Below are positions 186 through 59,928 of a DNA stretch of 64,000 nt, piece by piece. The stretch's first letter is position 1; each line of letters begins with the position of its first letter. A program made the position numbers and the translations under genes. The DNA comes from Phyllobates terribilis (lineage: Eukaryota). The notes under the pieces are model-generated. The model did no database searches, had not been told where the DNA came from, and saw nothing but the letters and a program-made list of their open reading frames with translations. The stretch spans positions 200,756,001-200,820,000 of the forward strand of contig NW_027362773.1 of NCBI RefSeq assembly GCF_046119375.1, in the 5' to 3' direction.

Positions 186-1579
186 TTCATCTTTAATTAA
201 TTATAATTTCATTCTGCACATCACATTTAAATGGAATATCAATGCCCTGCGTCATTCTATATTGGTTTCCACACTATGGATCATAGTTTCGAAACATATC
301 TGCCCAATTCTATTTTGTAGATATCTCTGTGGATAATGGATCAAAATAATTTAGATTTTTACTCTGGGTGTCAGGCTGCAGAACTCCATATTATCGCAGA
401 TGAGATCACAGGTCTATTTCTTAACCTTATTTGAATATTTTCTAACTACAGACATAGTCACACAGGTACAAGAACCCCAGGTAACCCCTCTATAGTTCTT
501 CTTCAGTTCTTCAGCTCATTTTAACCCCTGCTATTTTTCGAGACTTAACATTTTCACATGACAGTCAGGAGAAATATTCTCTGAAAATAGCTGAAAAATG
601 TATTCTCAGAATAAAGTTTTATCATTCGATAAAAGTGTAAGTGAAAAGTGTAGTCATTAATAGAGATGAGCGTTGTTCTACTCGAACTGTTCGCCAATCT
701 CAAATTCGAGCTGTTTTGGGCGGTGTTCGAGCCGTTCGGCGAACACGAACAATTTGAGAAAAATTCGGCTGTTCGAGGTTATGTTCGATAACTGTTCGTG
801 CACCAAAATCATAACTGGATTTTTTCTCAGTAATGATGAAAATTAATGTTAATACGCAGTTTGAGTGTACAGCGGGGTGGGGGGAGGGGCAGGGGATGGA
901 TCTCTGCAGGAACAATGAAGATCTCCATTTTTTTTTCTCTTTCCCGCATTTGCAGTGGGGAGGTGCAATCTGTCAGCCTATCAGCAGCGCACACACGGAG
1001 CGAAGTGCTTTTTTTCACACAAGCAAGGGCATGTGTCATTGGCAGTGTATGTCACATGTCCTTGCCCTATAAGACCAAGCCATTTTCCCCGTCGCCACCA
1101 TTTTCTCACTGCTGCAGCTGCGTGTTAGACGGCACCGCTGTTGCTGTGTGCGCTATACCTTGTTAATTTCAAGCCAATTTTCGCACAAATCTACAGATAG
1201 CTTGGGAGTAGGGAATAGTTGTGATTGCAGTCCTTTTAAGGACTAGGTTACAGCATTTCCTACGACTTTTATCAGGGAGGTCTGTGCTCTTAAATAGATA
1301 GGTTGTGGGAGTAAAGACTAATTGTAATTGGAGTCCTTTTCAGGACTAGGTTACATCAGTTCCTATCAGTTTTTGCCAGGCAGGTCTGTGCCAGTGCTGT
1401 GCAAGTTTTTTTCACAGCATTTGGCTGAATCTAGCAAAGCTAATCCTTTTTGGCCTATTGCAGAGTGTGTTAGTCAGTGGAGTAGCCTATCTGTGTTGCA
1501 AGATATAACACCTGTGTATAGAATACCAATTTTTTTACTGCACCTAGTGAAGTAAAATCTTTTGGGCATAGCATCATTC

Positions 1580-3078
1580 TATTAGTCCATCTATACTGAC
1601 CTCCATCAGGTTGCAAACTGAATATAATTTTTTTCTGCATCTAGCTCTGAAAAAATATTTGGGCTTCTAGCAGTGTGTGGGACTTGGTCTATTAGTCCAT
1701 CTATATTGACCTCCATCAGGTTGCAAATTAAAAATAATTTTTTTCTTCATTTAGCTCTGAAAAAATATTTGGGCTTCTAGCAGTGTGTGGGACTTGTTCT
1801 ATTAGTCCTTCTATACTGACCTCCAGCAGGTTGCAAATTGAATATAATTTTTTTCTGCTTCTAGCTCTGAAAAAATAGTTGGGCTTCTAGCGGTGTGTGG
1901 GACTTGGTCTATTAGTCCATCTATACTGACCTCCATCAGGTTGCAAATTAAAAATAATTTTTTTCTGCATCTAGCTCTGAAAAAATATTTGGGCTTCTAG
2001 CAGTGTGTGGGACTTGGTCTATTAGTCCATCTATACTGACCTCCATCAGGTTGCAAATTAAAAATAATTTTTTTCTGCATCTAGCTCTGAAAAAATATTT
2101 GGGCTTCTAGCAGTGTGTGGGACTTGGTCTATTAGTCCATGTATACTGACCTCCATCAGGTTGCAAATTAAAAATAATTTTTTTCTGCATCTAGCTCTGA
2201 AAAAATATTTGGGCTTCTAGCAGTGTGTGGGACTTGGTCTATTAGTCCATCTATACTGACCTCCATCAGGTTGCAAATTAAAAATAATTTTTTTCTTCAT
2301 TTAGCTCTGAAAAAATATTTGGGCTTCTAGCAGTGTGTGGGACTTGTTCTATTAGTCCTTCTATACTGACCTCCAGCAGGTTGCAAATTGAATATAATTT
2401 TTTTCTGCATCTAGCTCTGAAAAAATAGTTGGGCTTCTAGCGGTGTGTGGGACTTGGTCTATTAGTCCATCTATACTGACCTCCATCAGGTTGCAAATTA
2501 AAAATAATTTTTTTCTGCATCTAGCTCTGAAAAAATATTTGGGCTTCTAGCAGTGTGTGGGACTTGGTCTATTAGTCCATCTATACTGACCTCCATCAGG
2601 TTGCAAATTAAAAATAATTTTTTTCTGCATCTAGCTCTGAAAAAATATTTGGGCTTCTAGCGGTGTGTGGGACTTGGTCTATTAGTCCATCTATACTGAC
2701 CTCCATCAGGTTGCAAATTAAAAATAATTTTTTTCTGCATCTAGCTCTGAAAAAATATTTGGGCTTCTAGCAGTGTGTGGGACTTGGTCTATTAGTCCAT
2801 CTATACTGACCTCCATCAGGTTGCAAATTAAAAATAATTTTTTTCTGCATCTAGCTCTGAAAAAATATTTGGGCTTCTAGCGGTGTGTGGGACTTGGTCT
2901 ATTAGTCCATCTATACTGACCTCCATCAGGTTGCAAATTAAAAATAATTTTTATCTGCGTCTACAGTACCTCTGAAAAAATATTTGGGCTTCTAGCAGTG
3001 TGTGGGACTATTTGAATTAGTCCATCTATACTGACCTCCATCAGGTTGCAAATTCAAAATAATATTTTTCTGCATCTA
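1580..3078 (+). repeat. 110-bp tandem array (about 14 units) inside hAT-A copy 1
   Basis: CTATACTGAC-like anchor recurs at 1591, 1701, 1811 ... 2911 (exact 110-bp period), with a last unit at 3026. Confidence 0.95.
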
Positions 3079-3194
3079 ACCCAGCCAATAGTTTTGGCCT
3101 AATACCACAGTTTGGCCACTCAGCTCTGCTCGGTTACCATCCATTGTTTTTTTGTGCAAACAACTCCAGAGTTGTGAATTAGTTAACCACCAAA

Positions 3195-6100
3195 ATGAGT
3201 GGAAAAAGGCCTGCTGCTGGTGGAAAGGGGAATAGGCGTGTTGGGAAGGGGAAAAAAGGTTGTGTCCGTGGGGTAGGTGTTAAAGCAACAGTAACATCTG
3301 CAGAAGAAAGACCATCTTCCAGCCAAACTAAAATGTCTACTTCTTTTAGCGGACAATGTGATAAGATCCCTTTCTTACGGCCACGCCAATCGCTACAAAT
3401 TCCAGATGAGACACAAAAACAGCAGGTGCTTCAACGGATATCAAGTGCTCCTTTAAGTGGGCTCTCCTCCACATCAACTTCAACATCACAAATACTCCAG
3501 TCCTCAAAGGTGTCACCCAAATCGCACTTGCTTCCTCACAGCTCCCAAATCTCCAGCTGCCCGTCTGAGTATGAGGTAGAACAGATGGTTGAGTCTGCAG
3601 AGCTGTTTACTCATACTATAGCCTGGGAATCAGAGGTCGACTCCAGCGCTTCTGTGAATCCAGACGAGGAAATGATCTGCACTGATACCCAGAATCTTTA
3701 TGAGTCGGATCCAGGACCAGACGCAGAAGGTTCTGACCATAATGTAGACCCTCATTCCCAAACTGTAACTCCTGTTGGTGGAGACAATGAGGAAGACGAT
3801 GATAAGACTCAAATACCTGATTGGAGCGACAACTTTAGTTTTTTGTCAGGGCAGGAACAGGTTGGATCTGAGGACGACGGGTGTGATAACGCACAAGGTG
3901 ATGATGATGAGGTCGGAGATCCCACTTACTGTCAACCCACAGTCAGCCAAGAGATGAGGTCAGCAGAGGAGGTGGAGGAAGATGCTAATGACGACGAGGT
4001 CAGGTTGCGCCTTCCTGGACAGAGACGTAGTACTGGAAGCACGTCAACAACTGCATCCTCAAACACAACTCTGCCTCTCACCACAAGTCGTGGTGGCTCT
4101 TCAGGTCGCATGGGTGCTAAGCCTTGCATAGCCTGGGCATTTTTTCAGATCGATAAAGATGACCCAACTCGTGTTATCTGTAACATTTGTCAGCAAAAGC
4201 TAAGTAGAGGCCAAAAAATACATAGTTTGAGTACTTCATGCATGAACCGGCACATGGACATGAAGCATAAGATGCAGTGGGAAGCTCAGTGTGCTACAAT
4301 GCGGCCTAGCCGGCCGGGCCAATCACCGTCTGCCATATCTTGTGCATCCGCGGCCTCTTCATCCTCTGTGACTGGGGGGACAGCAGTCACACCTGTTTTG
4401 GGGCGCAGACCTGCCACCTCTTTACCCGCAACAGCCAGCGTGATTGGCAGGTCATCATTTTCTTTGGAGGTGGTAACACCAGCTGGTGTTGAGCGCTGTC
4501 CGACATCGATAGCACCACCTTTGGATCAAGGCAACCTAACATGTCCGCCTGCATCTTCCTCACAGACCGGCAGTTTGCCGGGGACACCCTTATCAACCCC
4601 GTCTAAGCACAATAGCCAGCCCTCGGTCCCTCAGATGTGGACAAGTAAAAGACCATTTCCTCCTAGCCATGAGAAAGCTAAGAGGTTGAATTTCACCATC
4701 TGCAAGCTCTTGGCTACAGAAATGCTGCCTTTCCGCCTGGTGGACACAGAGGATTTTCGAGACCTTATGTCCGTCGCAGTGCCCCAGTACCAGATGCCCA
4801 GTCGGCACTACTTCTCAAAGAAAGGTGTGCCTGCGCTCCACCAGCATGTCGCACACAACATCACCGCTTCTTTGAGAAACTCTGTGTGTGACAGGGTGCA
4901 TTTCACCACAGACACTTGGACGAGTAGGCATGGACAGGGGCGTTACATGTCGCTGACTGGGCACTGGGTAACTATGGTGACAGCAGGACAAGGGGCTGCT
5001 GTCCAAGTCTTGCCGTCCCCACGAGTTGTGCGTCAATCCTCTTTATGTCAAAGTTCCTCCACTGCTTCTGCCTCCTCAACCTCCTCTCGGTCTTCCACCT
5101 GCACCCAAAGCCTGTCTGGTCATGCCACAAGCTTTCTAACTGCGCAGAAGGGATCCTGCACACCTCCTTACTATGCTGGCAGTAGGGCTCAACGTCATCA
5201 GGCGGTTTTTACATTGAAATGTCTGGGAAATGTGAGTCACACAGCTGAGGATTTGTGGTCAGCTCTGGAGAACCAATTTCATGAATGGTTGTCTCCACTG
5301 GACCTGAAACCAGGAAAGGCCGTGTGCGACAATGCTGCAAACCTGGGTGCGGCCCTTCGCCGGGGCAATGTCACACACGTGCCTTGTATGGCTCACGTGT
5401 TGAACCTGGTTGTCCAGCAATTTTTAGCCCACTATCCCAGACTAGATGGCCTTCTGCAGAGGGCACGGTCGCTGTGTGCTCACTTCCGCCGTTCGCATCC
5501 CGCAGCTCAGCGACTTACATCTCTACAGAAGTCGTTGGGCCTGCCACTTCACCGGCTAAAATGCGATGTGCCTACCCGGTGGAATTCAACTCTGCACATG
5601 TTGCAGCGACTGTGGCAGCACCGACAAGCCCTGGTGCAATACGTTCTGACGTATAGCCTGGGCCAACGAGATTCAGAGGTGGGGCAAATCACGCTGGAGG
5701 AGTGGTCTCAGATCAGGGACCTATGCACCCTTCTGCACAGTTTTGAAATGGCGACGAAGATGTTTAGTGCTGACGATGCCATTATCAGCATGACTATTCC
5801 GGTGATTTACATGCTGGAGTACATGTTAAACAGAATTCGGAGTCAGGTGGTGGCACAAGAGGAGGTGGAGGAAGTAGAGGAGGAGGAGTTGTATGCGGAA
5901 GGGCTAACATCTGCAAGGTCCAGACGGTCGGCAGCACCAAGGCGGCAGGCATGTGAGGGTGGGGGAGATGGTTTTACCAGGGCGCATGGTAGCAGCCAAA
6001 CTAGTGAGGAAGGTGCAGGAGCCCAGGAAGAAGTGGAGGACGAACTGATGGAAGACTCATCAGATGAGGGAGACCTTAATCACATTTCTGTTGTGCGAGG

Positions 6101-6896
6101 TTGGGGGGAGAGGACAGAGGAAGGAAGCATGATTGTTACCTCGCCACCAACACAACAGGGACTTGGTGCTCCTGGATGCGCAACACACATGAGTGCCTTC
6201 TTGCTGCACTACCTGCAACATGACCCTCGAATTGTGACAATTAGAAATAATCCTGACTACTGGGTTGCCACACTGTTAGATCCCCGGTACAAAAGTAAAT
6301 TTGCAGAAATTATTCCTGCCATAGAAAGGGATGCACGCATGCAGGAGTATCAGCAGAGACTGTTGCAGAATCTTACATGTGCTTTTCCACAAAATACCAG
6401 TGGTGCACGTAGTGAATCTCACAGTTCCAACTTGCCAACCGTGGGACCATCAAGTGTTCAGCACTCAAACCGTAACAGAACCACAGTATCTGCTGGTAAC
6501 ATCAATTTTGCGGAATCATTTCACCACTTTTTTAGCCCATCCTTTGCAAGGCCACAGGAGACAAGAAGTCTGACACATAGTCAACGCCTAGAGACGATGG
6601 TACAGGAGTATCTCCAAGTAAACATTGAAGCCACGACTGTGTCACTGGACCCTTGCTCTTTTTGGGCTTCCAATCTGGATAAATGGCCGGAGCTAGCCAC
6701 TTACTCCTTGGAGATCTTGTCATGCCCCGCAGCCAGCGTTCTGTCTGAACGTGTGTTCAGCGCTGCTGGTGGTGTGCTGACAGATAAGCGCACGCGGCTC
6801 TCCACTGATAATGTAGACAGACTCACGTTCATAAAGATGAACAAATCATGGATCCGAAACGACTTTTCTACCCCTGTGTCATCCTGGGGAGAGTAA
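3195..6896 (+). CDS. hAT transposase (1233 aa): BED zinc finger, DDE RNase H-like domain, C-terminal dimerization domain
   Basis: Uninterrupted ORF with BED finger (W-x-FF...CNIC...HMDMKH), TTDTW (first D), CDNAANL (second D), CMAH (CxxH), DVPTRWNST, and CPAASVLSERVFS (catalytic E / dimerization region). Confidence 0.93.
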   Translation: MSGKRPAAGGKGNRRVGKGKKGCVRGVGVKATVTSAEERPSSSQTKMSTSFSGQCDKIPFLRPRQSLQIPDETQKQQVLQRISSAPLSGLSSTSTSTSQILQSSKVSPKSHLLPHSSQISSCPSEYEVEQMVESAELFTHTIAWESEVDSSASVNPDEEMICTDTQNLYESDPGPDAEGSDHNVDPHSQTVTPVGGDNEEDDDKTQIPDWSDNFSFLSGQEQVGSEDDGCDNAQGDDDEVGDPTYCQPTVSQEMRSAEEVEEDANDDEVRLRLPGQRRSTGSTSTTASSNTTLPLTTSRGGSSGRMGAKPCIAWAFFQIDKDDPTRVICNICQQKLSRGQKIHSLSTSCMNRHMDMKHKMQWEAQCATMRPSRPGQSPSAISCASAASSSSVTGGTAVTPVLGRRPATSLPATASVIGRSSFSLEVVTPAGVERCPTSIAPPLDQGNLTCPPASSSQTGSLPGTPLSTPSKHNSQPSVPQMWTSKRPFPPSHEKAKRLNFTICKLLATEMLPFRLVDTEDFRDLMSVAVPQYQMPSRHYFSKKGVPALHQHVAHNITASLRNSVCDRVHFTTDTWTSRHGQGRYMSLTGHWVTMVTAGQGAAVQVLPSPRVVRQSSLCQSSSTASASSTSSRSSTCTQSLSGHATSFLTAQKGSCTPPYYAGSRAQRHQAVFTLKCLGNVSHTAEDLWSALENQFHEWLSPLDLKPGKAVCDNAANLGAALRRGNVTHVPCMAHVLNLVVQQFLAHYPRLDGLLQRARSLCAHFRRSHPAAQRLTSLQKSLGLPLHRLKCDVPTRWNSTLHMLQRLWQHRQALVQYVLTYSLGQRDSEVGQITLEEWSQIRDLCTLLHSFEMATKMFSADDAIISMTIPVIYMLEYMLNRIRSQVVAQEEVEEVEEEELYAEGLTSARSRRSAAPRRQACEGGGDGFTRAHGSSQTSEEGAGAQEEVEDELMEDSSDEGDLNHISVVRGWGERTEEGSMIVTSPPTQQGLGAPGCATHMSAFLLHYLQHDPRIVTIRNNPDYWVATLLDPRYKSKFAEIIPAIERDARMQEYQQRLLQNLTCAFPQNTSGARSESHSSNLPTVGPSSVQHSNRNRTTVSAGNINFAESFHHFFSPSFARPQETRSLTHSQRLETMVQEYLQVNIEATTVSLDPCSFWASNLDKWPELATYSLEILSCPAASVLSERVFSAAGGVLTDKRTRLSTDNVDRLTFIKMNKSWIRNDFSTPVSSWGE

Positions 6897-7104
6897 AAGC
6901 TTGATGATTGGTTAAAATCACCCTACCAACCGTTTTAAGCTTTCAAATTACTAATCATGTTTATCTGTATCTTGACTGGAAAATAATTTGGGCTTTGTAG
7001 CAGTGTGCAGCACTGATCCTATTAGGCCATCTATACTAAAGCTTCACCAGATTTAAAATTAAAAATAATTTTTAGCTGCATCTAGCCCGGAAAATAATTT
7101 TGGG

Positions 7105-7222
7105 GCTCAGAGATGCGCAAGGCACATAAGTGCCTTCTTGCTGCACTACCTGCAGCATGACCCTCATATTGTCAGAATTCGAAGAAATCATGACTACTGG
7201 GTTGCCACACTCTTAGATCCCC
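7105..7222 (+). pseudogene. Degenerate second copy of a hAT-A transposase segment (continues at 8597-8667)
   Basis: Reads ...FLLHYLQHDPHIVRIRRNHDYWVATLLDP, matching 6186-6286. Positions 8599-8667 match 6378-6444. Confidence 0.85.
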
Positions 7223-8596
7223 CAAACTTTTCGATCAACCTTTTCATTTTAATAAAGACCAAAAAAATGGTCATTTTTGAAATTATAAGCATTAGCAGGT
7301 TGTTAGAAACTGAAATCAAACAGTTTTCAACTCAAAACTTTATTCTAGGTGATGTTACATTTTCACATAGGACCCCTTGTTCGAAAGGAGCGTCTGAACT
7401 CTCTCGTCCATTGAATTTGTCAGGTTTTGGATGGTTTCTGCTTCAATTGTTTTGCATGAGGACAGAATACCCTCCCAGAGCTGTTGCTTAGATGTGAACT
7501 GCCTCCCGCCATCATAGACACTCCTTTTAATGATGCTCCAAAGGTTCTGAATGGGGTAGAGGTCAGGGGAGCATGGGGGTCACACCATAAGTTTGTCCCC
7601 TTTTATGCCCATATCAGCCAGAGATGCAAATGTTTTATGTGCAGCATGAGATGGTGCATTATCATGCAGAAAAATGATCTTGCTGTGAAATACACGGTTC
7701 TTCTTCTTGAACCATGGCAGGAAGTGCTGTTTGAGAAAATCCACATACATTATGGAGTTCATCTTTAGCGCCTTCAGGGATCCTAAAGGGGCCGACAATC
7801 TCTCTCCCCATGATTCCAGCCCAAAACATTACTCCACCTCCTCCTTGTTGGCGCTGTAGCCGTGTTTGCGTGGGGTGTCCATCAACCAGCCATCCTCCAC
7901 TCCATCCATCTGGACCATCGAGCGCTGCACGGCACTCATCCGTGAACAAAACAGTTTTGAAATCAGTCTTCATGTAATGTTTGGCCCACTGGAGCCGTTT
8001 CTGCTTGTGTGAAGTGGATAGAGGAGGTCGACAGGATGGCGCATGCACAGCTGCAAACCTCTGAAGGACCCTGCATCTTGTTGTTCAGGGGACGTTGGAG
8101 GCACAAGCAGCTTCAAAAACTTGTCTGCTGCTATGACAAGGCTTTTTTGCCGCTGCTCTTTCAACCTGACGTAATTGCCTGTAGGAAAGAGTCCTCAATT
8201 TGCCCTTATCAGCACGCACACGTGTGTACTGTGAATCAGCTACATACTTCTTGATTGCCAAGACACTTCATCCTGATCATCGCACAATGTTGATTGTAGT
8301 CATGCCTTGACCTAAACACTCCACAATTTGTTGCTTCTCAGCAGCCGACACATCCTTTTTCTTTCCCATTTTGGCAGAAAATGTAGGCTGCTTAATAATG
8401 TGAGAGAGCCTTCTTAAGTAGTCTTGCCTTTCATTGGACACACCTGCCAAACTAATTAGCACAGGTGTCTGCAATTGCTTACAGTGATATAAAGAGCCCT
8501 GACACACATCACCATCAATGAGTTTAACTGACAAACAAACAAATTCTTCCCTTATCACTCCTAAACACTTTTTGTATAATAATTTGGAACGCAGTG
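7223..8596 (-). mobile_element. Truncated Tc1/mariner of the DD37E (TRT-like) type, nested in hAT-A copy 1
   Basis: Minus-strand fragments: MGKKKDVSAAEK, VLFTDECRAALDGPDGW, and HDNAPSHAA...V*PPCSPDLYPIQ (37 residues between D and the E position, with E changed to Q). One TIR end (CACTGCGTTCCAAATT on minus) is followed by TA at 8597-8598; the other end is missing. Confidence 0.8.
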
Positions 8597-8667
8597 TACA
8601 TGAGCTTTTCCACAAAACACCAGTGGTTCACGTAGTGAATCTTACAGTTCTAACTTGCCAACCGTGG

Positions 8668-10490
8668 TCTGTATGGAGTTGTTCAATAAAGGGCTCAAAA
8701 TTAAGATAACATAGATGGGAGAGGTCTCTATGAATAGGAATTCCTAAGTATTTGATACCCTGTGAGGGCCAGGCAAAGGGAAAGTTGGACTGGATGGAAT
8801 CCTATATGGATTTGGGGAGGGAGACATCGAGGGCCTCAGACTTCGCTGCATTGATTTTAAAATTTTACCATGTAACAAAGTGATCTATTTCAGCCATAAC
8901 AGCATGGATGGATATATGTGATTGAGTGATATATACTAGGACATCATCAGCAAATAGAGAGCACTTGTACTCGGTGCCTCCCACCTCAATCCACCTAATA
9001 TTGGGGTTATGGCGAATTGATGAGAGCAGGTGCTCCGTCACTAGGATGTATAAGAGAGGGGACAGAGGACATCACTGCCTTGTCCCATTGGTGATTGTGA
9101 AAGGTGATGAAAATGTTCTGACGCACCCCCTGGGCCTTGGGACACCCGGAGCCGGACCCTTTTTGGTGGATGCTGGTGGTTGTAGTCTTCGTGGCGGCGA
9201 CCCAGTTCCGTGGCTCAGGGCGGTCAAACCAGTGGCGGAACTATTTATGTGGTTTTCATGTTTAAATGTCCGACTACGCCACCCGTGGATTGCGGTCAGA
9301 GTGAACCGCCGCTACAGGGCAGACCACTGAGGCTGGTGTTGTGGGTGCAGCAGAGCGTAGCATAACTCCCCACGGGAGGAGTATAGCCTCAGGGCAGTGT
9401 ATGCGGAGGATGGGGGTGATGGTGCAGGGCAGCAGCAGTAACGACACGGAGTCAGTGATGCAGTTCAGGGCCTTTACTCACAGTTCTTATTATCCAGACC
9501 AGTCTGCAGGTAACGGCTGCCCACGTCGTACTGTGCTCACCAGGTGAGGGGCTCAGACAACTCCCAGATAACTTTGGAGCGCTTCACAGGACCCCCTTTG
9601 TGTGTCCTTTGTCTGGCCTTTCTTACCAACATTTCTGTCCGGCTGCCTCGGGCCTCCTCTTGGTAAACTTGGCGCCAGTTTCCCTGACCCTATGTGGTGC
9701 CTTCCTAGCGGGTGTAGCGAGGGGCTGCGCCACATAAAATGTCAGAGCCTCCGGTTTCTAGCTGAGGGTCGTTTCCTGCCTCCACTAGTTCGGGGACCGG
9801 TCTCCCCCTTTGGCCTGACCCCTCCACGCAGGTGGATTCGGGCGTGCGGTGGCGACTCGCCCGTCCGCACCCCTGGGATCCCTTCATTCCTCGTTCCTGG
9901 AGCCTTCTCCGCTCCTCTTCCTTCCTTCTCCCTCTTCCAGGCCTGGGCCTCTGTTACTAGGCCCGCCTCCGGAGCAGAGCTCATGCAGAGCCCCTGCTCC
10001 CTGCCACTTCTGCTCAGACTTCTCTGCACTGAACTAAGATGGTGCCCACCTTTTATACTCCCTTCTCAATGCACCCAGGAACTGCTTCCTCCCTGCTCCT
10101 GCACTACAGGGTTCCCCTTCCTCAGTGTTCCCTCCCCCCACTCCAGCCAGGGACAGGGACTGTCGTGCCCATCTCAGGGGCATATTGGTCGCCCTGCCCC
10201 ACGGCAATGTGGTGTAATGCATGCAGGTGTCGGGTCCTGATCCACACTCCATCCTTACCTGAGAGTGAGATATCACACCTCTGGGTGAGGTGCAATACGT
10301 CTGTAGCAACCGAGCCCTCATGGTGCTACAGTTCCATTTATCTTCAGCCTAGGTGACGTATTGCGATACAGGGCCGTGATTTTGGCTATAAAAGGGTCCC
10401 CTAGACCCCTACCCCAAGCTTTTTAAGAGAATCATATATGGCGTGCCAGGAGACTCTATGGAATGCTTTCTCAGCATCCAACGAGAGTAT
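8668..10490 (-). mobile_element. L1-clade LINE ORF2 (RT) fragment captured in hAT-A, split by a solo LTR
   Basis: Minus-strand peptides: ILSLDAEKAF, ...RLKINGT|FSSPFTITNGT-RQ-CPLSPLLY, FADD, and QGIKYLGI. Confidence 0.88.
9119..10330. mobile_element. Solo LTR (Gypsy-type) inserted in the L1 fragment
   Basis: TG...CA termini with a 4-bp TSD GTTC (9115-9118 / 10331-10334). Removing it rejoins the L1 reading frame. Similar to 29793-31060. Confidence 0.85.
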
Positions 10491-10594
10491 CTAATTACAA
10501 ATTTTTAACTGCATCTAGCCCAGGAAATACTTTGTGCCTAGTAGCAGTGTCTGCTAGTGAGCGGATTATCCCGGCTGTTAAGCAAGCTGCACCA

Positions 10595-10867
10595 CCTGTA
10601 GTTTAGACACTTAATTTTTTCAAATGAAATGCTTCGGGACCATGGGATACTTAGTGAAGAGCATCAGGAGGCACCCCAAGGCATAGGGGCTGGGACTGGC
10701 AGTAGGATGCCTTGCGGTGGACAGCCGAGCTCGATCCTTATAAAAGCTTTTTAACTGCAGCAGCTTTAGTGGACGCTACTGGAGCTGGAATTACCGCGGC
10801 TGCTGGCATGAGACTTGCCCTCCAATAGATCCTTGTAAATGGATTTAAAGTGTATTCATTCAAATTA
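10595..10867 (-). pseudogene. 18S rRNA-derived fragment (helix-18/530-loop region plus the start of V4), non-functional
   Basis: Reverse complement contains ...GCCAGCAGCCGCGGTAATTCCAGCTCC...GCTGCAGTTAAAAAGCT, then GGATCGAGCT...GTCCCAGCCCC...GATGCTCTT...CCCGAAGC...TTTGAAAAAATTA, collinear with vertebrate 18S as remembered. About 13 mismatches in the 123-bp core, by eye. Confidence 0.88.
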
Positions 10868-11825
10868 GAGAGACAATTTAAATTAAAAAGCTTAGAGCTG
10901 CCTCCACCACAGGGGGGCTCGCTCGACCCACCAGCGGACAGGCACCAGTATTGGGAGAGGGGGGCTGGCCGTCAGGGTTCACCGCGGCTCTGGCACAAAC
11001 CCGGCGACACGGAGGTGGCACGGGCAGGAGCGGACTGGCCGTGTCAGCTTCTCACTTTTTGGATTTTAGAAGGGCATGACATGCCTATATCTGTGTCTCC
11101 CCCTCCTTTTACTCCTCCACCTCTTTTATTTTCGCATGACTATATGTACTTGTCACTTTTCCATGTGTTAGTTATGTCTTCTGAGCAGTTTGTCAGCTTT
11201 TGGACACCTTTGAAGGTGTTTTCTATGTGTTTCTATGTGTTTTTGTTTGCCTGCCATTGGTTTTAACGGTGTTCGAAGGTGTTCGACGAACAGTTCGACG
11301 AACAGTTCGGCGAACACACGGGTGTTCGACGAACCGAACCGAACTCGAACACTACGGGGGTGGCTCAACACTAGTCATTAACCCTCACCCCAAAATGGTC
11401 CTGAAAAAAATATGCTTTGACGGTACACTTCTAATTTTGTATTTTTAGGATTTGTATCTATCTCTTTTGGAAAATCTGGTTAATGTTTTAACTTTTATAT
11501 CTCTGTTAATGTCATTTCTAAATTGATGCCCTTGTCTAATGTTTGTTTAAAGTTGTATTTAAAGAGTAGACGGGGTCTACAAAATGGCTCCCAATATCAG
11601 TACTTCCTGAACCAGAGTGGTGGAATGTCTATTGGTGCAACCTCTTCTCTTTTTGTGCGCACAGTATCATCTATTCCTAATAGCCCCATAGGTTAGTATT
11701 TAAATATTTTCATGGTTATAAAGAACCACCCATGAGGAACCAAAATCATTAATATTTCCTTGTTAATTAGAGATGTTTCTGTTGATGGAAGAATCATTGA
11801 CACAAAATTGTACTACAAAAAACTG

Positions 11826-22207: not shown

Positions 22208-22209
22208 GT

Positions 22210-22219: not shown

Positions 22220-22220
22220 C

Positions 22221-46599: not shown

Positions 46600-48155
<1,556 letters not shown>

Positions 48156-48936: not shown

Positions 48937-51900
48937 CATCTTTAGTCCCCAATGTTTCATCAGCATTAGCAAGACTGAATAATAGCAGAAGAAAAAGGGG
49001 CAGTTGTCTAAGGAACTCGGTATTCAGCAGCCTCCACCATCCTATCCTATGTTCCATTTAAACACTATATGGAATTATATTGAATCCATATGGCTGTATT
49101 GTGTTAGCGTTTAATTGAGACATCTCGCCTCAAGTCATGCCTTTTCTTGAATAAGCGGTAGCTCACACAGGCGCAAACATCGGACGAGTGCTTTCCGATG
49201 TTTTATCGGATAGCACTCAGACCAATGCTGTTCTATGAGACCGTGCCGATTCGGCATGAGAAAAAAATCGTAGCTCAGATCTGATCGCACTCACTCATTC
49301 AAGTCTATAAGTGAATGCAAAATACTGGATTGCACTCGGATAACGCGAGTGTAGTCTGATTTCCGCGGTGTCAAACAATGGAGAAGATGGAGAAATTATA
49401 TACTCCATCTCCTCCTCGCCTGTGCTATGATTCTCTCATTCAGAGAATCAGATCACTCTATTGTGACACTCGGCTCAAACTCAGATCAAAGTTTGATCCG
49501 AATGTCATTTCCATAATCGATCCGATTTTTTTGCTTGAGAGAATCTACGCTCATTTGACCCAGGCCTAAAAGGGAAAGGATGTTGGAAGATATACAATCA
49601 ATTCCTTCCCTTCTAATATATACAGTTTTCACCTTTGCACATCTCTGAAGCACATAAAAAAAGTTTGCTTTAACTTTTTTGATGCTGATGGCCAATAGAA
49701 TATAACCTTAAGAGTGTGGGAAGGAGTAATCTAGTTTTAGAAATTCCTTACCCTATAGTCCTAAGTGTAGCAATGATGCTAAAAAAAACATAGAGCGCAA
49801 ATAGGGTCTTATCTTACCTTGGCAGAGGAAATACTTGTTTCACGTCTTTGTCCTACATTTCCATGATCTTAAGGGGTGTTGATCACTTTATAAAATATTT
49901 TTGACTAATGATGGTTCAAGTTCTAAGACCCGACTTGATCCTTTAAAAGATAGCGCTTTAGCGAACAGATGAGCATAGTGCCCATTATATATTGATCGGA
50001 TTTGCTTGGCTAATTTTTGGGGAGCTGATCTGGCAAGAAAATATAGGAGCCCATACATTGACCTCTCAGTTTTCCGAGGAGAGCCAAACAAAGATGTTTA
50101 TGTCTTAGGGGCAAACCCTCTACAGAGACTTCTGTACCTTTATTTTAACAATCAGGAGGGGGGTCTATAAACAGAATATACATTTTAAGTAAAAGCAACA
50201 GCAGAATTGCTGTGTTTGCCATTTTTTATAATAAAGTACTAAAAAAAAATAACCAAATGTTTCCCCAAATTCTGGGGGTGTAATTCATCCAGGAAAAACA
50301 AGCTCTCACACAGAATTTAGTAATTTTGATTTTACCAATATTTTAACTGATGAAGTTCCCTGTTTCAGGGTTTTATGTTGCATGTTTTACCTGAAAATAG
50401 CAAAAAAAAGCATAATACCAAAATATCCAACCTATAAACCTTAAGACGTTTTTGACCTATATAAAAAAAATCCATTTAAGGATCAAAGTTAAAACAACTT
50501 GGAGACCTCAAAATTAGTAAATGTAGGAGAACTGTTAGAATCTATGTTGCTTTACTTTTCGGCCATCTTTTTGTGGTTTGCTGGCTTCTAGTCTTTTCCT
50601 CTGGTGCTGGGTGTCTTGTTCACGTGATCTCCTCACTCTTTATTACTCAGCACCTGTCTCCCATTCCTTGCTGGACTTCAGTGTTGTTAAGCTTAAGGAC
50701 GATGAGGACGGTGAATTTGAAATTTCTTGCATTTTGAATTCCAGGTGGCATAGAGGGAGATTACAGTATCTTGTGTCCTGGATAGTTTTCGGCCCAGAGG
50801 AACAACACTGTTGTGTTGTTCGGCCCCTGGACTTCAGTGTTATTATGCTTGTGCTCTGGCTAATTTGCATTGTTAGTTCTTTGTGCTTAGGACAATTGAT
50901 ATCCTGGGACTTCTGGTTCCACCAGTTTTGTTTCCTTAAATCTTTGTTTCTGCAGCTAACTTCTCTTTTAGGAGGTCACTTATGTTTGCTCCCAGTCCTT
51001 AGATCTTTTAGGTACTCCCTTTCCCTCTCTTAAGGTCTTCGTTTGAGTTCAGTGCAGGTTCGTCGGTGGGGCTATTCAAAGGAATAGGGCACCCACCCCA
51101 GTGTAAGGTTTAAGAGGAGTCTCAGTGCAGGGACAGCTTTTCCCCCCTATTCCTTAGGTCCTAGTTGCAGAATATAACAGTATGTCCAGCCCCATTTAAA
51201 AGCAAAAAAACAAAAAAAGTTTTTTTTTTTTTTTTCCTCTTCCTGGGTTTTCTTTAGTTTGAGTACCATCAACGCTTGCAAGGGTTGACTCTGGAGATTG
51301 CCGGTCTTCAGCAGTACGTGAGAAAATACCCTGCAGAACACTATTAAGAACCTAAGGTAGGATTACCTGAGTGTTTCTCGGGGAAACAACAGGATTTTTT
51401 TTCATTTAAAAATGCTTCTTTGTTGTATTTTCGGATCAGACCTAGATCTTCTGGGAATGAACTACAGCGTCTAGGGATTATTATGTCTCTATTGCGTAAA
51501 GAACCACAAATCTGGGTGTCTTCCTTGACTCCTGATTAGAGATGAGCGTTGTTCTACTCGAACTGTTCGCCAATCTCAAATTCGAGCTGTTTTGGGCGGT
51601 GTTCGAGCCGGTCGGCGAACACGAACAATTTGAGAAAAATTCGGCTGTTCGAGGTTATGTTCGATAACTGTTCGTGCACCAAAATCATAACTGGATTTTT
51701 TCTCAGTAATGATGAAAATTAATGTTAATACGCAGTTTGAGTGTACAGCGGGGCGGGGGGAGGGGCAGGGGATGGATCTCTGCAGGAACAATGAAGATCT
51801 CCATTTTTTTTTCTCTTTCCCGCATTTGCAGTGGGGAGGTGCAATCTGTCAGCCTATCAGCAGCGCACACACGGAGCGAAGTGCTTTTTTTCACACAAGC

Positions 51901-52451
51901 AAGGGCATGTGTGATTTGCATTGTATGTCACATGTCCTTGCCCTATAAGACCAAGCCATTTTCCCCGTCGCCACCATTTTCTCACTGCTGCAGCTGCGTG
52001 TTAGACGGCACCGCTGTTGCTGTGTGCGCTATACCTTGTTAATTTCAAGCCAATTTTCGCACAAATATACAGATAGCTTGGGAGTAGGGAATAGTTGTGA
52101 TTGCAGTCCTTTTAAGGACTAGGTTACAGCATTTCCTACGACTTTTATCAGGCAGGTCTGTGCTCTTAAATAGATTGTGGGAGTAAAGACTAATTGTAAT
52201 TGGAGTCCTTTTCAGGACTAGGTTACATCAGTTCCTATCAGTTTTTGCCAGGCAGGTCTGTGCCAGTGCTGTGCAAGTTTTTTTCACAGCATTTGGCTGA
52301 ATCTAGCAAAGCTAATCCTTTTTGGCCTATTGCAGAGTGTGTTAGTCAGTGGAGTAGCCTATCTGTGTTGCAAGATATACCACCTGTGTATAGAATACCA
52401 ATTTTTTTACTGCACCTAGTGAAGTAAAATCTTTTGGGCATAGCATCATTC

Positions 52452-54385
52452 TATTAGTCCATCTATACTGACCTCCATCAGGTTGCAAACTGAATATAAT
52501 TTTTTTCTGCATCTAGCTCTGAAAAAATATTTGGGCTTCTAGCAGTGTGTGGGACTTGGTCTATTAGTCCATCTATACTGACCTCCATCAGGTTGCAAAT
52601 TAAAAATAATTTTTTTCTTCATTTAGCTCTGAAAAAATATTTGGGCTTCTAGCAGTGTGTGGGACTTGTTCTATTAGTCCTTCTATACTGACCTCCAGCA
52701 GGTTGCAAATTGAATATAATTTTTTTCTGCATCTAGCTCTGAAAAAATATTTGGGCTTCTAGCGGTGTGTGGGACTTGGTCTATTAGTCCATCTATACTG
52801 ACCTCCATCAGGTTGCAAATTAAAAAAAAATTTTTTCTGCATCTAGCTCTGAAAAAATATTTGGGCTTCTAGCAGTGTGTGGGACTTGGTCTATTAGTCC
52901 ATCTATACTGACCTCCATCAGGTTGCAAATTAAAAATAATTTTTTTCTTCATTTATCTCTGAAAAAATATTTGGGCTTCTAGCAGCGTGTGGGACTTGTT
53001 CTATTAGTCCATCTATACTGACCTCCATCAGGTTGCAAATTAAAAATAATTTTTTTCTGCATCTAGCTCTGAAAAAATATTTGGGCTTCTAGCAGTGTGT
53101 GGGACTTGGTCTATTAATTCATCTATACTGACCTCCATCAGGTTGCAAATTAAAAATAATTTTTTTCTGCATCTAGCTCTGAAAAAATATTTGGGCTTCT
53201 AGCAGTGTGTGGGACTTGGTCTATTAGTCCATCTATACTGACCTCCATCAGGTTGCAAATTAAAAATAATTTTTTTCTTCATTTATCTCTGAAAAAATAT
53301 TTGGGCTTCTAGCAGCGTGTGGGACTTGTTCTATTAGTCCATCTATACTGACCTCCATCAGGTTGCAAATTAAAAATATTTTTTTTCTGCATCTAGCTCT
53401 GAAAAAATATTTGGGCTTCTAGCAGTGTGTGGGACTTGGTCTATTAATCCATCTATACTGACCTCCATCAGGTTGCAAATTAAAAATAATTTTTTTCTGC
53501 ATCTAGCTCTGAAAAAATATTTGGGCTTCTAGCAGTGTGTGGGACTTGGTCTATTAGTCCATCTATACTGACCTCCATCAGGTTGCAAATTAAAAATAAT
53601 TTTTTTCTTCATTTAGCTCTGAAAAAATAATTGGGTTTCTAGCAGTGTGTGGGACTTGGTCTATTAGTCCATCTATACTGACCTCCATCAGGTTGCAAAT
53701 TAAAAATAATTTTTTTCTGCATCTAGCTCTGAAAAAATATTTGGGCTTCTAGCAGTGTGTGGGACTTGGTCTATTAGTCCATCTATACTGACCTCCATCA
53801 GGTTGCAAATTAAAAATAATTTTTTTCTTAATTTAGCTCTGAAAAAATATTTGGGCTTCTAGCAGTGTGTGGGACTTGTTCTATTAGTCCTTCTATACTG
53901 ACCTCCAGCAGGTTGCAAATTGAATATAATTTTTTTCTGCATCTAGCTCTGAAAAAATATTTGGGCTTCTAGCGGTGTGTGGGACTTGGTCTATTAGTCC
54001 ATCTATACTGACCTCCATCAGGTTGCAAATTAAAAATAATTTTTTTCTGCATCTAGCTCTGAAAAAATATTTGGGCTTCTAGCGGTGTGTGGGACTTGGT
54101 CTATTAGTCCATCTATACTGACCTCCATCAGGTTGCAAATTAAAAATAATTTTTTTCTGCATCTAGCTCTGAAAAAATATTTGGGCTTCTAGCAGTGTGT
54201 GGGACTTGGTCTATTAGTCGATCTATACTGACCTCCATCAGGTTGCAAATTGAATAAAAAAATTTTCTGCATCTAGCTCTGAAAAAATATTTGGGCTTCT
54301 AGCGGTGTGTGGGACTTGGTCTATTAGTCCATCTATACTGACCTCCATCAGGTTGCAAATTAAAAATAATTTTTTTCTGCATCTA
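52452..54385 (+). repeat. 110-bp tandem array (about 18 units) in hAT-A copy 2
   Basis: CTATACTG at 52463 ... 54333 (17 intervals of 110 bp). Confidence 0.95.
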
Positions 54386-54501
54386 ACCCAGCCAATAGTT
54401 TTGGCCTAATACCACAGTTTGGCCACTCAGCTCTGCTCGGTTACCATCCATTGTTTTTTTGTGCAAACAACTCCAGAGTTGTGAATTAGTTAACCACCAA
54501 A

Positions 54502-57500
54502 ATGAGTGGAAAAAGGCCTGCTGCTGGTGGAAAGGGGAATAGGCGTGTTGGGAAGGGGAAAAAAGGTTGTGTCCGTGGGATAGGTGCAGAAGAAAGACCA
54601 TCTTCCAGCCAAACTAAAATGTCTACTTCTTTTAGCGGACAATGTGATAAGATCCCTTTCTTACGGCCACGCCAATCGCTACAAATTCCAGATGAGGCAC
54701 AAAAACAGCAGGTGCTTCAACGGATATCAAGTGCTCCTTTAAGTGGGCTCTCCTCCACATCAACTTCAACATCACAAATACTCCAGTCCTCAAAGGTGTC
54801 ACCCAAATCGCACTTGCTTCCTCACAGCTCCCAAATCTCCAGCTGCCCGTCTGAGTATGAGGTAGAACAGATGGTTGAGTCTGCAGAGCTGTTTACTCAT
54901 ACTATAGCCTGGGAATCAGAGGTCGACTCCAGCGCTTCTGTGAATCCAGACGAGGAAATGATCTGCACTGATGCCCAGAATCTTTATGAGTCGGATCCAG
55001 GACCAGACGCAGAAGGTTCTGACCATAATGTAGACCCTCATTCCCAAACTGTAACTCCTGTTGGTGGAGACAATGAGGAAGACGATGATAAGACTCAAAT
55101 ACCTGATTGGAGCGACAACTTTAGTTTTTTGTCAGGGCAGGAACAGGTTGGCTCTGAGGACGACGGGTGTGATAACGCACAGGGTGATGATGATGAGGTC
55201 GGAGATCCCACTTACTGTCAACCCACAGTCAGCCAAGAGATGAGGTCAGCAGAGGAGGTGGAGGAAGATGCTAGTGACGACGAGGTCAGGTTGCGCCTTC
55301 CTGGACAGAGACGTAGTACTGGAAGCACGTCAACAACTGCATCCTCAAACACAACTCTGCCTCTCACCACAAGTCGTGGTGGCTCTTCAGGTCGCATGGG
55401 TGCTAAGCCTTGCATAGCCTGGGCATTTTTTCAGATCGATAAAGATGACCCAACTCATGTTATCTGTAACATTTGTCAGCAAAAGCTAAGTAGAGGCCAA
55501 AAAATACATAGTTTGAGTACTTCATGCATGAACCGGCACATGGACATGAAGCATAAGTTGCAGTGGGAAGCTCAATGTGCTACAATGCGGTCTAGCCGGC
55601 CGGGCCAACCACCGTCTGCCATATCTTGTGCATCCGCGGCCTCTTCATCCTCTGTGACTGGGGGGACAGCAGTCACACCTGTTTTGGGGCGCAGACCTGC
55701 CACCTCTTTACCCGCAACAGCCAGCGTGATTGGCAGGTCATCATTTTCTTTGGAGGTGGTAACACCAGCTGGTCTTGAGCGCTGTCCGACATCGATAGCA
55801 CCACCTTTGGATCAAGGCAACCTAACATGTCCGCCTGCATCTTCCTCACAGACCGGCAGTTTGCCGGGGACACCCTTATCAACCCCGTCTAAGCACAATA
55901 GCCAGCCCTCGGTCCCTCAGATGTGGACAAGTAAAAGACCATTTCCTCCTAGCCATGAGAAAGCTAAGAGGTTGAATTTCACCATCTGCAAGCTCTTGGC
56001 TACAGAAATGCTGCCTTTCCGCCTGGTGGACACAGAGGATTTTCGAGACCTTATGTCCGTCGCAGTGCCCCAGTACCAGATGCCCAGTCGGCACTACTTC
56101 TCAAAGAAAGGTGTGCCTGCGCTCCACCAGCATGTCGCACACAACATCACCGCTTCTTTGAGAAACTCTGTGTGTGACAGGGTGCATTTCACCACAGACA
56201 CTTGGACGAGTAGGCATGGACAGGGGCGTTACATGTCGCTGACTGGGCACTGGGTAACTATGGTGACAGCAGGACAAGGGGCTGCTGTCCAAGTCTTGCC
56301 GTCCCCACGAGTTGTGCGTCAATCCTCTTTATGTCATTTTTCCTCCACTGCTTCTGCCTCCTCAACCTCCTCTCGGTCTTCCACCTGCACCCAAAGCCTG
56401 TCTGGTCATGCCACAAGCTTTCTAACTGCGCAGAAGGGATCCTGCACACCTCCTTACTATGCTGGCAGTAGGGCTCAACGTCATCAGGCGGTTTTTACAT
56501 TGAAATGTCTGGGAAATGTGAGTCACACAGCTGAGGAGTTGTGGTCAGCTCTGGAGAACCAATTTCATGAATGGTTGTCTCCACTGGACCTGAAACCAGG
56601 GAAGGCCGTGTGCGACAATGCTGCAAACCTGGGTGCGGCCCTTCGCCGGGGCAATGTCACACACGTGCCTTGTATGGCTCACGTGTTGAACCTGGTTGTC
56701 CAGCAATTTTTAGCCCACTATCCCAGACTAGATGGCCTTCTGCAGAGGGCACGGTCGCTGTGTGCTCACTTCCGCCGTTCGCATCCCACAGCTCAGCGAC
56801 TTACATCTCTACAGAAGTCGTTGGGCCTGCCACTTCACCGGCTAAAATGCGATGTGCCTACCCGGTGGAATTCAACTCTGCACATGTTGCAGCGACTGTG
56901 GCAGCACCGACAAGCCCTGGTGCAATACGTTCTGACGTATAGCCTGGGCCAACGCGATTCAGAGGTGGGGCAAATCACGCTGGAGGAGTGGTCTCAGATC
57001 AGGGACCTATGCACCCTTCTGCACAGTTTAGAAATGGCGACGAAGATGTTTAGTGCTGACGATGCCATTATCAGCATGACTATTCCGGTGATTTACATGC
57101 TGGAGCACATGTTAAACAGAATTCGGAGTCAGGTGGTGGCACAAGAGGAGGTGGAGGAAGTAGAGGAGGAGGAGTTGTATGCGGAAGGGCTAACATCTGC
57201 AAGGTCCAGACGGTCGGCAGCACCAGGGCGGCAGGCATGTGAGGGTGGGGGAGATGATTTTACCAGGGCGCATGGTAGCAGCCAAACTAGTGAGGAAGGT
57301 GCAGGAGCCCAGGAAGAAGTGGAGGACGAACTGATGGAAGACTCATCAGATGAGGGAGACCTTGATCACATTTCTGTTGTGCGAGGTTTGGGGGAGAGGA
57401 CAGAGGAAGGAAGCATGATTGTTACCTCGCCACCAACACAACAGGGACTTGGTGCTCCTGGATGCGCAACACACATGAGTGCCTTCTTGCTGCACTACCT

Positions 57501-57777
57501 GCAACATGACCCTCGAATTGTGAGAATTAGAAATAATCCTGACTACTGGGTTGCCACACTGTTAGATCCCCGGTACAAAAGTAAATTTGCAGAAATTATT
57601 CCTGCCATAGAAAGGGATGCACGCATGCAGGAGTATCAGCAGAGACTGTTGCAGAATCTTACATGTGCTTTTCCACAAAATACCAGTGGTGCACGTAGTG
57701 AATCTCACAGTTCCAACTTGCCAACCGTGGTCTGTATGGAATTGTTCAATAAAGGGCCCAAAATTAAGATAACATAG
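54502..57777 (+). CDS. C-terminally truncated hAT transposase (1091 aa; lacks the catalytic E and dimerization region)
   Basis: Collinear with copy 1 up to ...SSNLPTV (57730), then 15 L1-antisense-derived residues. Also has a 21-bp in-frame N-terminal deletion. Confidence 0.88.
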   Translation: MSGKRPAAGGKGNRRVGKGKKGCVRGIGAEERPSSSQTKMSTSFSGQCDKIPFLRPRQSLQIPDEAQKQQVLQRISSAPLSGLSSTSTSTSQILQSSKVSPKSHLLPHSSQISSCPSEYEVEQMVESAELFTHTIAWESEVDSSASVNPDEEMICTDAQNLYESDPGPDAEGSDHNVDPHSQTVTPVGGDNEEDDDKTQIPDWSDNFSFLSGQEQVGSEDDGCDNAQGDDDEVGDPTYCQPTVSQEMRSAEEVEEDASDDEVRLRLPGQRRSTGSTSTTASSNTTLPLTTSRGGSSGRMGAKPCIAWAFFQIDKDDPTHVICNICQQKLSRGQKIHSLSTSCMNRHMDMKHKLQWEAQCATMRSSRPGQPPSAISCASAASSSSVTGGTAVTPVLGRRPATSLPATASVIGRSSFSLEVVTPAGLERCPTSIAPPLDQGNLTCPPASSSQTGSLPGTPLSTPSKHNSQPSVPQMWTSKRPFPPSHEKAKRLNFTICKLLATEMLPFRLVDTEDFRDLMSVAVPQYQMPSRHYFSKKGVPALHQHVAHNITASLRNSVCDRVHFTTDTWTSRHGQGRYMSLTGHWVTMVTAGQGAAVQVLPSPRVVRQSSLCHFSSTASASSTSSRSSTCTQSLSGHATSFLTAQKGSCTPPYYAGSRAQRHQAVFTLKCLGNVSHTAEELWSALENQFHEWLSPLDLKPGKAVCDNAANLGAALRRGNVTHVPCMAHVLNLVVQQFLAHYPRLDGLLQRARSLCAHFRRSHPTAQRLTSLQKSLGLPLHRLKCDVPTRWNSTLHMLQRLWQHRQALVQYVLTYSLGQRDSEVGQITLEEWSQIRDLCTLLHSLEMATKMFSADDAIISMTIPVIYMLEHMLNRIRSQVVAQEEVEEVEEEELYAEGLTSARSRRSAAPGRQACEGGGDDFTRAHGSSQTSEEGAGAQEEVEDELMEDSSDEGDLDHISVVRGLGERTEEGSMIVTSPPTQQGLGAPGCATHMSAFLLHYLQHDPRIVRIRNNPDYWVATLLDPRYKSKFAEIIPAIERDARMQEYQQRLLQNLTCAFPQNTSGARSESHSSNLPTVVCMELFNKGPKIKIT

Positions 57778-59552: not shown

Positions 59553-59656
59553 CTACTTACAAATTTTTAACTGCATCTAGCCCAGGAAATACTTTGTGCC
59601 TAGTAGCAGTGTCTGCTAGTCAGCGGATTATCCCGGCTGTTAAGCAAGCTACACCA

Positions 59657-59928
59657 CCTGTAGTTTGGACACTTAATTTTTTCAAAGGAAATGCTTCGGG
59701 ACCACGGGATACTTAGTGAAGAGCATCAGGAGGCACCCCAAGGCATAGGGGCTGGGACTGGCACTAGGATGCCTTGCGGTGGACAGCCGAGCTCGATCCT
59801 TATAAAAGCTTTTTAACTGCAGCAGCTTTAGTGGACGCTACTGGAGCTGGAATTACGCGGCTGCTGGCATGAGACTTGCCCTCCAATAGATCCTTGTAAA
59901 TGGATTTAAAGTGTATTCATTCAAATTA
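59657..59928 (-). pseudogene. 18S rRNA-derived fragment in hAT-A copy 2
   Basis: Near-identical to 10595-10867, with a 1-bp deletion in the ATTACCGCGG core. Confidence 0.87.

Follow-up and report, generated by a model that had tools for sequence, protein, structure and literature searches.

A cargo-laden hAT transposon at tens of thousands of sites in the Phyllobates terribilis genome and the probable stepwise gain of its cargo

How a DNA transposon comes to carry remains of several other elements, and whether such a composite moves in one piece, is the question raised by a 64,000-nucleotide stretch of Phyllobates terribilis DNA (NCBI RefSeq assembly GCF_046119375.1, contig NW_027362773.1, positions 200,756,001 to 200,820,000 of the forward strand), hereafter called the window and numbered from its first letter. 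It holds two copies of a hAT transposon whose 3' part is filled with foreign DNA. Judged from sequence comparison, this is very probably an approximately 11-kb hAT whose cargo-bearing copies occupy tens of thousands of sites with target site duplications (TSDs) of their own, and which would have been moved whole by a transposase that many of these copies still encode, the cargo likely having been gathered stepwise.

Both copies lie on the same strand with a start-to-start distance of 50.9 kb, and their borders were defined by self-comparison and global alignment. They comprise the following features, including the open reading frame (ORF) of copy 2.

653..660, left 8-bp TSD of copy 1 (GTCATTAA)
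661-11373, + strand, copy 1, cargo-bearing hAT transposon
11374..11381, right 8-bp TSD of copy 1 (GTCATTAA)
51529..51536, left 8-bp TSD of copy 2 (CTCCTGAT)
51537..60434, + strand, copy 2, short deletion form inside an older Ty3/Gypsy gag-like region
54502..57777, + strand, truncated transposase ORF of copy 2, 1091 amino acids (aa), without the SERVFS motif and dimerisation domain, running into antisense L1
60435..60442, right 8-bp TSD of copy 2 (CTCCTGAT)

The initial annotation had described two same-strand copies about 51 kb apart, each with its own perfect 8-bp TSD, and this was borne out by the alignment. Both are bounded by an identical imperfect 11-bp inverted repeat (9/11 matching), and no homology was found between the flanks of copy 1 and those of copy 2. 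The reverse transcriptase (RT) piece of an L1 element, the GTTC-flanked long terminal repeat (LTR) and the 18S piece, all named in that annotation, are indeed present in the shared cargo, the LTR having TG...CA ends. Its figure of about 99% identity holds for the cargo, with 97.5-99.2% by segment over aligned columns (transposase 99.2, L1 98.8-98.9, LTR 98.9, 3' tail 98.5%), but not for a full transposase common to both copies. Copy 2 lacks approximately positions 6429-8651 of copy 1 (2,223 bp) through a deletion between two 71-bp repeats and gives no Dimer_Tnp_hAT match; since the dimerisation domain is missing, the full ORF (1233 aa) exists in copy 1 only. Copy 2 also differs by about four extra units in a 110-bp array and one 21-bp in-frame gap. 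This array had been overlooked, as had a truncated Tc1 element, two pieces of older transposase and a second piece of ribosomal DNA (rDNA). Copy 2 itself splits an older Ty3/Gypsy element in its gag-like region (window ~50900-51536 and 60443-64000).

Whether the cargo travels with the hAT was assessed across the assembly (10.57 Gb searched). A 701-bp query spanning the Tc1/relic/L1/LTR junctions gave 40 scored matches out of 459 candidates, all 40 carrying these junctions at 98-100% identity and spread over 12 large contigs. The L1/LTR junction occurs 30,629 times as an exact pattern, a count beyond chance as backwards-read control patterns gave 0 matches for every probe, and 64,320 times with a relaxed probe (two degenerate letters, one mismatch). 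A right-end probe yielded 81,781 matches and a search for the 18S-piece family about 79,000 rough candidates, while the counts of two probes with variants rare outside copy 1 (4 and 440 matches) were left unused (0/60 sampled copies carry the overlapping 24-mers). The sample consisted of the first 60 exact-junction matches in position order on one contig, and 40 of the 49 copies lacking a usable left end were extended. Both ends became visible in 45 copies, 43 of which have a perfect TSD, and all 45 right-hand 8-mers are distinct; these elements measure 7.6-13.5 kb (median 10.7 kb). No 3' flank is shared among 57 copies, and a single 89% match was found among 46 5' flanks. A full ORF is present in 23 of the 60 copies (22 with all four transposase motifs given below); scaling 23/60 to 30,629 would put the exact-probe class at about 11,700 such ORFs (95% range 8,000-15,900). 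Additionally, contigs from two other sequencing runs, perhaps of the same individual, bridge the transposase/Tc1, relic/L1 and L1/LTR junctions. Hence, the proposal that the cargo predates both insertions in the window and travels with the hAT as a unit stands up to the assembly-wide junction count and TSD check that had been suggested for it; the junctions are not confined to two loci with homologous flanks. Multiplying 64,320 by 10.7 kb gives, as an upper figure, 688 Mb or 6.5% of the assembly.

In copy 1, transposon and cargo are arranged as follows; the rDNA pieces were compared with a complete rDNA unit from the same genome.

661..671, + strand, left terminal inverted repeat (TIR), 11 bp, imperfect (9/11 match the right TIR), from alignment
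661..1577, + strand, 5' subterminal region, 99.1% identical to copy 2 and found in sampled copies
1578..3078, + strand, internal tandem array, unit length ~110 bp, ~13.6 units as against 17.6 in copy 2, from self-comparison
3195..6896, + strand, intact hAT transposase ORF, 1233 aa, with zf-BED and C-terminal dimerisation domain
6938..7103, + strand, ~1.5 diverged internal-repeat units in the 3' untranslated region (UTR), 72-79% identical to the 5' array
7104..7222, + strand, relic piece A, from an older copy of this transposase (119 bp; matches ~6163-6285), 86-87%
7223..8596, - strand, Tc1/mariner element, 5' end at TA, 3' end lost, ORF broken, from domain and homology evidence
8597..8667, + strand, relic piece B of older transposase (matches 6374-6444), 93%; the 71-bp repeat of the copy-2 deletion
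8668..9118, - strand, internal slice of L1 ORF2 RT, part 1, ending in the GTTC target; RVT_1 match
9119..10330, + strand, solo LTR, 1212 bp, TG...CA, GTTC on either side, from sequence ends and duplication
10331..10491, - strand, duplicated GTTC, then L1 RT slice part 2, joining the native repeat over a 3-bp microhomology
10489..10601, + strand, 3' repeat unit native to the hAT, present 2-4 times in old-subfamily copies, from comparison with these
10602..10872, - strand, 18S rRNA gene fragment, 271 bp, 85% identical to the genome's own 18S
10890..11056, - strand, rDNA fragment upstream of 18S, likely 5' external transcribed spacer, 167 bp, 82% identical to own rDNA
11057..11373, + strand, 3' subterminal region and right TIR (11363-11373), from alignment and right-end probe

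The ~110-bp array is the chief cause of length differences between copies. The L1 slice matches RVT_1 with an E-value of 2.4e-17, measured on an LTR-less copy. The LTR shows what is expected of a solo LTR, with TG...CA ends, a short TSD, paired-LTR relatives and an empty site; over its length, it matches at 65% an LTR from a paired-LTR element whose TSD measures 4 bp. At window position 10794, a one-base loss in the 18S piece was noted in copy 2, about two thirds of the young copies and many copies without the LTR.

Copy 1 displays the hallmarks of a hAT element, with an 8-bp TSD, short TIRs and a protein combining zf-BED (PF02892), a DDE core and a C-terminal dimerisation domain (Dimer_Tnp_hAT, PF05699), whereas copy 2, zf-BED aside, falls short in the CxxH/DDE core and the dimerisation domain. 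The protein carries the motifs TTDTW (aa 571), VCDNA (710), CMAH (731) and SERVFS (1184) as well as long acidic and Ser-rich inserts. Its alignment with Hermes (E 6e-19 to Hermes structures) covers the regions of the second D, CxxH and E, and the first catalytic D is presumably the one assigned by motif. The nearest database proteins are frog 'ZBED4/6-like' sequences with 35-46% identity across the core, and no close database relative was found (best 46-50%). Target sites follow nTnnnnAn: of 57 copies, 51 have T as the second base and 48 have A as the seventh. Such a target is a mark of the Ac/hobo/Hermes group of hATs. NTRNNYAN is given for hobo-N families in the available part of PMC3014272, and Hermes, anuran ZBED4/6-like proteins and Xenopus hAT-10 (PMC9250109, in excerpt) share the zf-BED, hAT catalytic and dimerisation regions. 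By target preference, the element thus agrees with an Ac/hobo/Hermes grouping, the relation of the transposase being suggested by similarity searches. With intact ORFs in cargo-bearing copies, the element is to be regarded as an autonomous-type hAT, its enzyme being predicted from sequence. RNA reads for it numbered 1 and 0 in two RNA runs of a single sample, counts that carry no weight as the low DNA depth of this sample makes its nature doubtful.

The pattern of substitutions and the derivatives of the element bear on its mode of movement. Changes shared by at least five of 68 copies comprise 26 synonymous and 31 non-synonymous ones, a ratio of non-synonymous to synonymous polymorphism (pN/pS, from unweighted site counts) of 0.37, or 0.26 in the core, compared with 0.86 for singletons (229 synonymous, 643 non-synonymous; Fisher P 0.003 vs shared). 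Fixed differences between young and old copies number 56 synonymous and 69 non-synonymous. From the lower ratio among shared changes, the ORF has likely been under selection along cargo-bearing source lineages. The short form represented by copy 2 was found in 7 of the 60 copies, six with perfect TSDs seen directly and the seventh after extension; transposase-type letters run across nearly the entire 71-bp repeat in these copies, which places the crossover at the repeat's end. A rare lean form (17/21 exact probe matches) joins two 3' repeat units and thereby lacks 3.4 kb. Nine lean copies were fetched, eight of them two-ended, seven with perfect TSDs and four with ORFs of 1226-1233 aa. Lean copies, which retain rDNA, were considered as ancestors of the composite and rejected: they are 96-99% identical to copy 1 and fall in two places within the LTR-bearing clade. 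Twenty right ends sampled away from exact junctions comprise 11 LTR-bearing composites or pieces thereof, one composite without the LTR, four foldback elements and four old-type or interrupted copies. The foldback element (L152, L159, L167, L168) is 5.2-6.0 kb long and non-coding, with arms 88-92% alike; it has the same 148-bp left and ~200-bp right ends as the hAT, flanked by 8-bp TSDs, and is likely a non-autonomous partner of it. A foldback-related piece also lies in the window (14392-16710).

An explanation that competes with movement by the composite's own transposase is that the cargo copies move only in trans, driven by a separate cargo-free master, and that their ORFs are merely too young to have decayed. 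It would account for the 37 of 60 sampled copies without a full ORF and for the nearly neutral singleton changes; moreover, truncated and foldback derivatives with the same ends have evidently moved in trans, and lean copies with full ORFs do exist. However, no young cargo-free family appeared among the 20 right ends just described, lean copies are rare, rDNA-bearing and nested in the LTR clade, and shared substitutions on cargo-bearing lineages bear the signature of purifying selection. A master of this kind is hence quite unlikely.

The order in which the cargo was gained can be read from copies lacking parts of it. A probe for the L1 site without the LTR gave 6,009 matches genome-wide. Of 20 such loci fetched, 19 proved to be the same composite without the LTR and with a single GTTC, the other one being an LTR copy with an LTR-less tail behind it. 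Both ends are visible at nine of these pre-LTR loci, the TSD being perfect at seven and off by a single base at two, and one of the 19 copies holds a full ORF. In all five pre-LTR copies examined, the L1 reading frame runs through the empty site without a break, and free L1 relatives also show an uninterrupted LTR target site. LTR-empty composites with one GTTC and an open L1 frame indicate that the L1-bearing form was already widespread when the LTR entered it. A tree rooted on an old copy was built from the transposases of 89 copies with enough coverage, leaving out unclassified and mixed loci; in it, all 72 copies that bear the LTR or derive from LTR-bearing ones, the short and lean forms included, group as a single clade (support 0.999) amid the pre-LTR branches.

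An older subfamily was represented by ten loci. Their transposase is 90-93% identical, their 3' UTR is different, and Tc1, L1 and LTR are absent. Nine of the ten contain all or part of the rDNA (83-91% identical to the genome's own rDNA), and six also hold a stretch of about 810 bp; translation of this stretch from one copy gave a weak RT match and a YLDD motif, and the piece is probably DIRS-like. Two internally deleted old copies have both ends and perfect TSDs, and an old-type 3' junction probe gave 4,200 matches (a count only). Median pairwise transposase distances amount to 0.6% among LTR-bearing, 3.2% among pre-LTR and 5.2% among old copies, with 7.1% between old and young. At a substitution rate of 2.5e-9 per site per year (PMC11152451, in excerpt), the distances within the subfamilies would very roughly correspond to 1, 6 and 10 million years. 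With an LTR-less subfamily and an older subfamily holding, of this cargo, rDNA only, the cargo was not one package and was likely gained in steps. In the old subfamily (L201-L210), an 85-bp duplicate of the transposase 5' coding region (3572-3656) was also seen in the 3' UTR, another instance of self-capture, and two further old-type copies (L151, L166) have the transposase region inverted relative to the right end with the same breakpoint.

The middle block of relic transposase, Tc1 and L1 was probably copied from a decayed sister element, the remains of Tc1 and L1 having been part of that sister beforehand. With a donor probe, 16 of 22 matches turned out to be free L1 copies continuing past the right end of the slice, 15 of them past both ends; they are 89-98% identical to it, one being open for 1009 codons. 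The slice itself is internal, with neither poly(A) nor TSD, and meets the native repeat over its 3-bp microhomology, while the relic pieces, short as they are, stand slightly nearer to old-type than to young transposase (e.g., 93.7 vs 91.6%). An internal slice, microhomology and old-like relics all fit copying from such a sister.

Taken in sequence, DNA landing between the stop codon and the right end would be carried along passively. Pieces of 18S and upstream spacer probably came first, together with the DIRS-like RT piece that would later have been lost. The relic transposase, truncated Tc1 and internal L1 slice would have followed, likely taken over from the decayed sister through template switching or recombination within the internal repeats. 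Then, an LTR element entered the L1 slice and was likely reduced to a solo LTR, its host lineage afterwards giving rise to the largest and youngest burst. Finally, deletions between short internal repeats would have produced the truncated form seen in copy 2, likely moved in trans, and the rare lean form.

Several points weigh against this account of movement and stepwise gain. The 60 sampled copies all lie within 38 Mb at the start of a single contig and represent the exact-probe, that is, the youngest class only. Two of the 45 two-ended copies have mismatched, unrelated flanks, and 15 of the 60 have no TSD call (three without a recognisable right end, six split by later insertions, three not extended, and three extended without the left end being located). 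The pN/pS values derive from the unweighted counts already mentioned. The old loci were chosen from one-mismatch matches of a probe selecting against the L1 junction; the lack of L1 at that place is thereby built into the probe, and age and the different 3' UTR are the only independent evidence from these copies. In an unrooted 3'-cargo tree, an older LTR-bearing copy (L036) groups with pre-LTR copies, which points to recombination between copies. A donor locus joining relic, Tc1 and longer L1 was not found among the donor-probe matches.

Capture of the whole cargo at once, as a piece of old genomic DNA with nested elements as proposed for the lizard element hobo_AC, draws on the completeness of the relic-Tc1-L1 block in all pre-LTR copies, no partial intermediate having been seen. 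Against it stand the 6,009 LTR-empty matches, 19 of 20 sampled lying in full composites with one GTTC, and the older subfamily with rDNA but without any of the block. Single capture is thus refuted for LTR and rDNA and holds for the middle block only; as an explanation of the whole cargo it is highly improbable. Segmental duplication or an assembly artefact instead of transposition is practically negligible given distinct TSDs, unrelated flanks, the 40 scored matches on 12 large contigs and junctions bridged in other runs, although in a few pairs (L180/L181, L247/L248) the copies have a flank 8-mer in common or resemble duplicates, so that the counts are perhaps slightly inflated.

Some further observations concern individual copies. 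Six sampled copies that seemed 5'-truncated proved to be interrupted by later insertions (four paired-LTR elements, one tandem array and one tandemly repetitive sequence). Paired-LTR elements of about 4.8 kb, relatives of the cargo LTR, are inserted in four hAT copies (L033, L044, L047, L143), their LTR pairs being 99-100% identical in three; the one ORF scanned in this small element (745 aa) has a cold-shock domain as its only match. Four loci with mismatched flanks or fused neighbours (L075, L078, L150, L229) are likely recombinants or nested copies.

The closest described case, likened by description and not by sequence, is hobo_AC of Anolis carolinensis (Novick et al., PMC3014272), which the available part of that paper presents as an autonomous hAT of 9-15 kb with 290 copies that contains fragments of other transposable elements (TEs) and is still replicating. 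The element described here, with its 7.6-13.5 kb in 45 copies, belongs to the same class by description. Both share an 11-bp TIR starting with TAG, a GAGC-like end, an 8-bp TSD with T2/A7, recombination between elements and passengers that gain copy number. At the same time, the 290 copies of hobo_AC contrast with at least 30,629 and likely about 64,000 here, and its cargo in seven patterns, interpreted as captured old DNA, with one dominant uniform cargo and an LTR that entered the element while it was moving. In the anole, there are about 70 times as many non-autonomous as autonomous hATs, whereas 53 of 60 sampled junction-bearing copies here are not of the short form. Among animal Pack-TIRs, as far as the accessible text of Tan et al. 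2021 (PMC8277862) goes, 4 of 370 cases are multicopy, the example Pack-hAT-N8_XT having three derived copies with a gene UTR. Captured host rDNA with a traceable parent (82-85% in copy 1, 83-91% in old copies), distinct TSDs and microhomology at one junction are points of likeness; in contrast, the carrier here encodes a transposase, its cargo is mostly TE debris and it is present in tens of thousands of copies. Pack-TYPE/Pack-MULE elements of plants, described in the excerpt of PMC8903248 as non-autonomous carriers of coding DNA fragments, resemble it in having DNA-transposon ends around foreign DNA. The Pack-type label initially attached to the element is therefore apt for foreign cargo within transposon ends, but not for a non-autonomous carrier of coding DNA: full ORFs are present in copy 1 and 23 of 60 copies, and the cargo consists of Tc1, L1, LTR, relics of its own transposase and rDNA. 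A published description of this composite family was not found in partial literature coverage, with curated repeat libraries outside its scope.

The 18S piece is itself a target in some older copies. Three pre-LTR-type copies (L163, L133, L139) have an insertion at the same base, equivalent to window 10787-10790; that of L163 is a 7.9-kb antisense, Tx1-like element with a 4-bp duplication, encoding ZCCHC3-RBD, endonuclease, RT and zf-RVT domains. Alignments of the old copies L203 and L206 also end at this base, while none of the 60 young copies has an insertion there. This resembles Tx1L in Tx1D and Tx1-Mar in Mariner-N4_AMi, Tx1-like retrotransposons which, according to the excerpted source (PMC4494074), insert at one site of a DNA transposon, with the difference that the site here is a transposon-borne rDNA fragment. 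Elsewhere in the window, a Ty3/Gypsy chromodomain retrotransposon with a frameshifted gag-pol and 95% likeness between its two LTRs (~21131-27544), a second LTR from the wider family of the cargo LTR (29793-31052, 63% alike over its length) and two minus-strand Tc1/mariner transposase ORFs (44311-45207 and 46805-47869) were found.

Cargo-laden hATs as a kind have already been described; the novelty lies in the scale (as much as about 6.5% of the assembly) and in an order of cargo assembly that can be read, and the dominance of long transposase-bearing copies is also unusual. The gain of the LTR coincides with a roughly tenfold rise, from 6,009 LTR-less to 64,320 LTR-bearing probe matches, and the 3.4-kb shorter form with intact transposase has only about 20 exact matches. 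On a speculative and rather doubtful view, the passengers helped the burst by acting in cis (transcript end, promoter or escape from silencing), one lineage thereby having enlarged the genome by about 0.7 Gb while seeding it with spurious solo LTRs, pieces of L1 and rDNA targets by the tens of thousands. The dated subfamilies allow cargo that is neutral, costly or helpful to be told apart by test. If most of the 64,320 matches are near full length, the family would make up as much as ~690 Mb of the assembly. Standard repeat annotation would likely split each copy into hAT, satellite, Tc1, L1, LTR and rRNA matches. Hence, some 78 Mb of apparent 'young solo LTR', along with L1 and 18S matches in the tens of thousands, would be misattributed to retrotransposition or LTR recombination, although each composite stems from one insertion event. 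This bears on the claim, as worded in the available part of PMC12822217, that retroelements drive anuran genome size, and may also affect solo-LTR ratios as a measure of DNA loss. A transposase that would move 11-13 kb naturally is, as proposed for hobo_AC, a candidate large-cargo vector.

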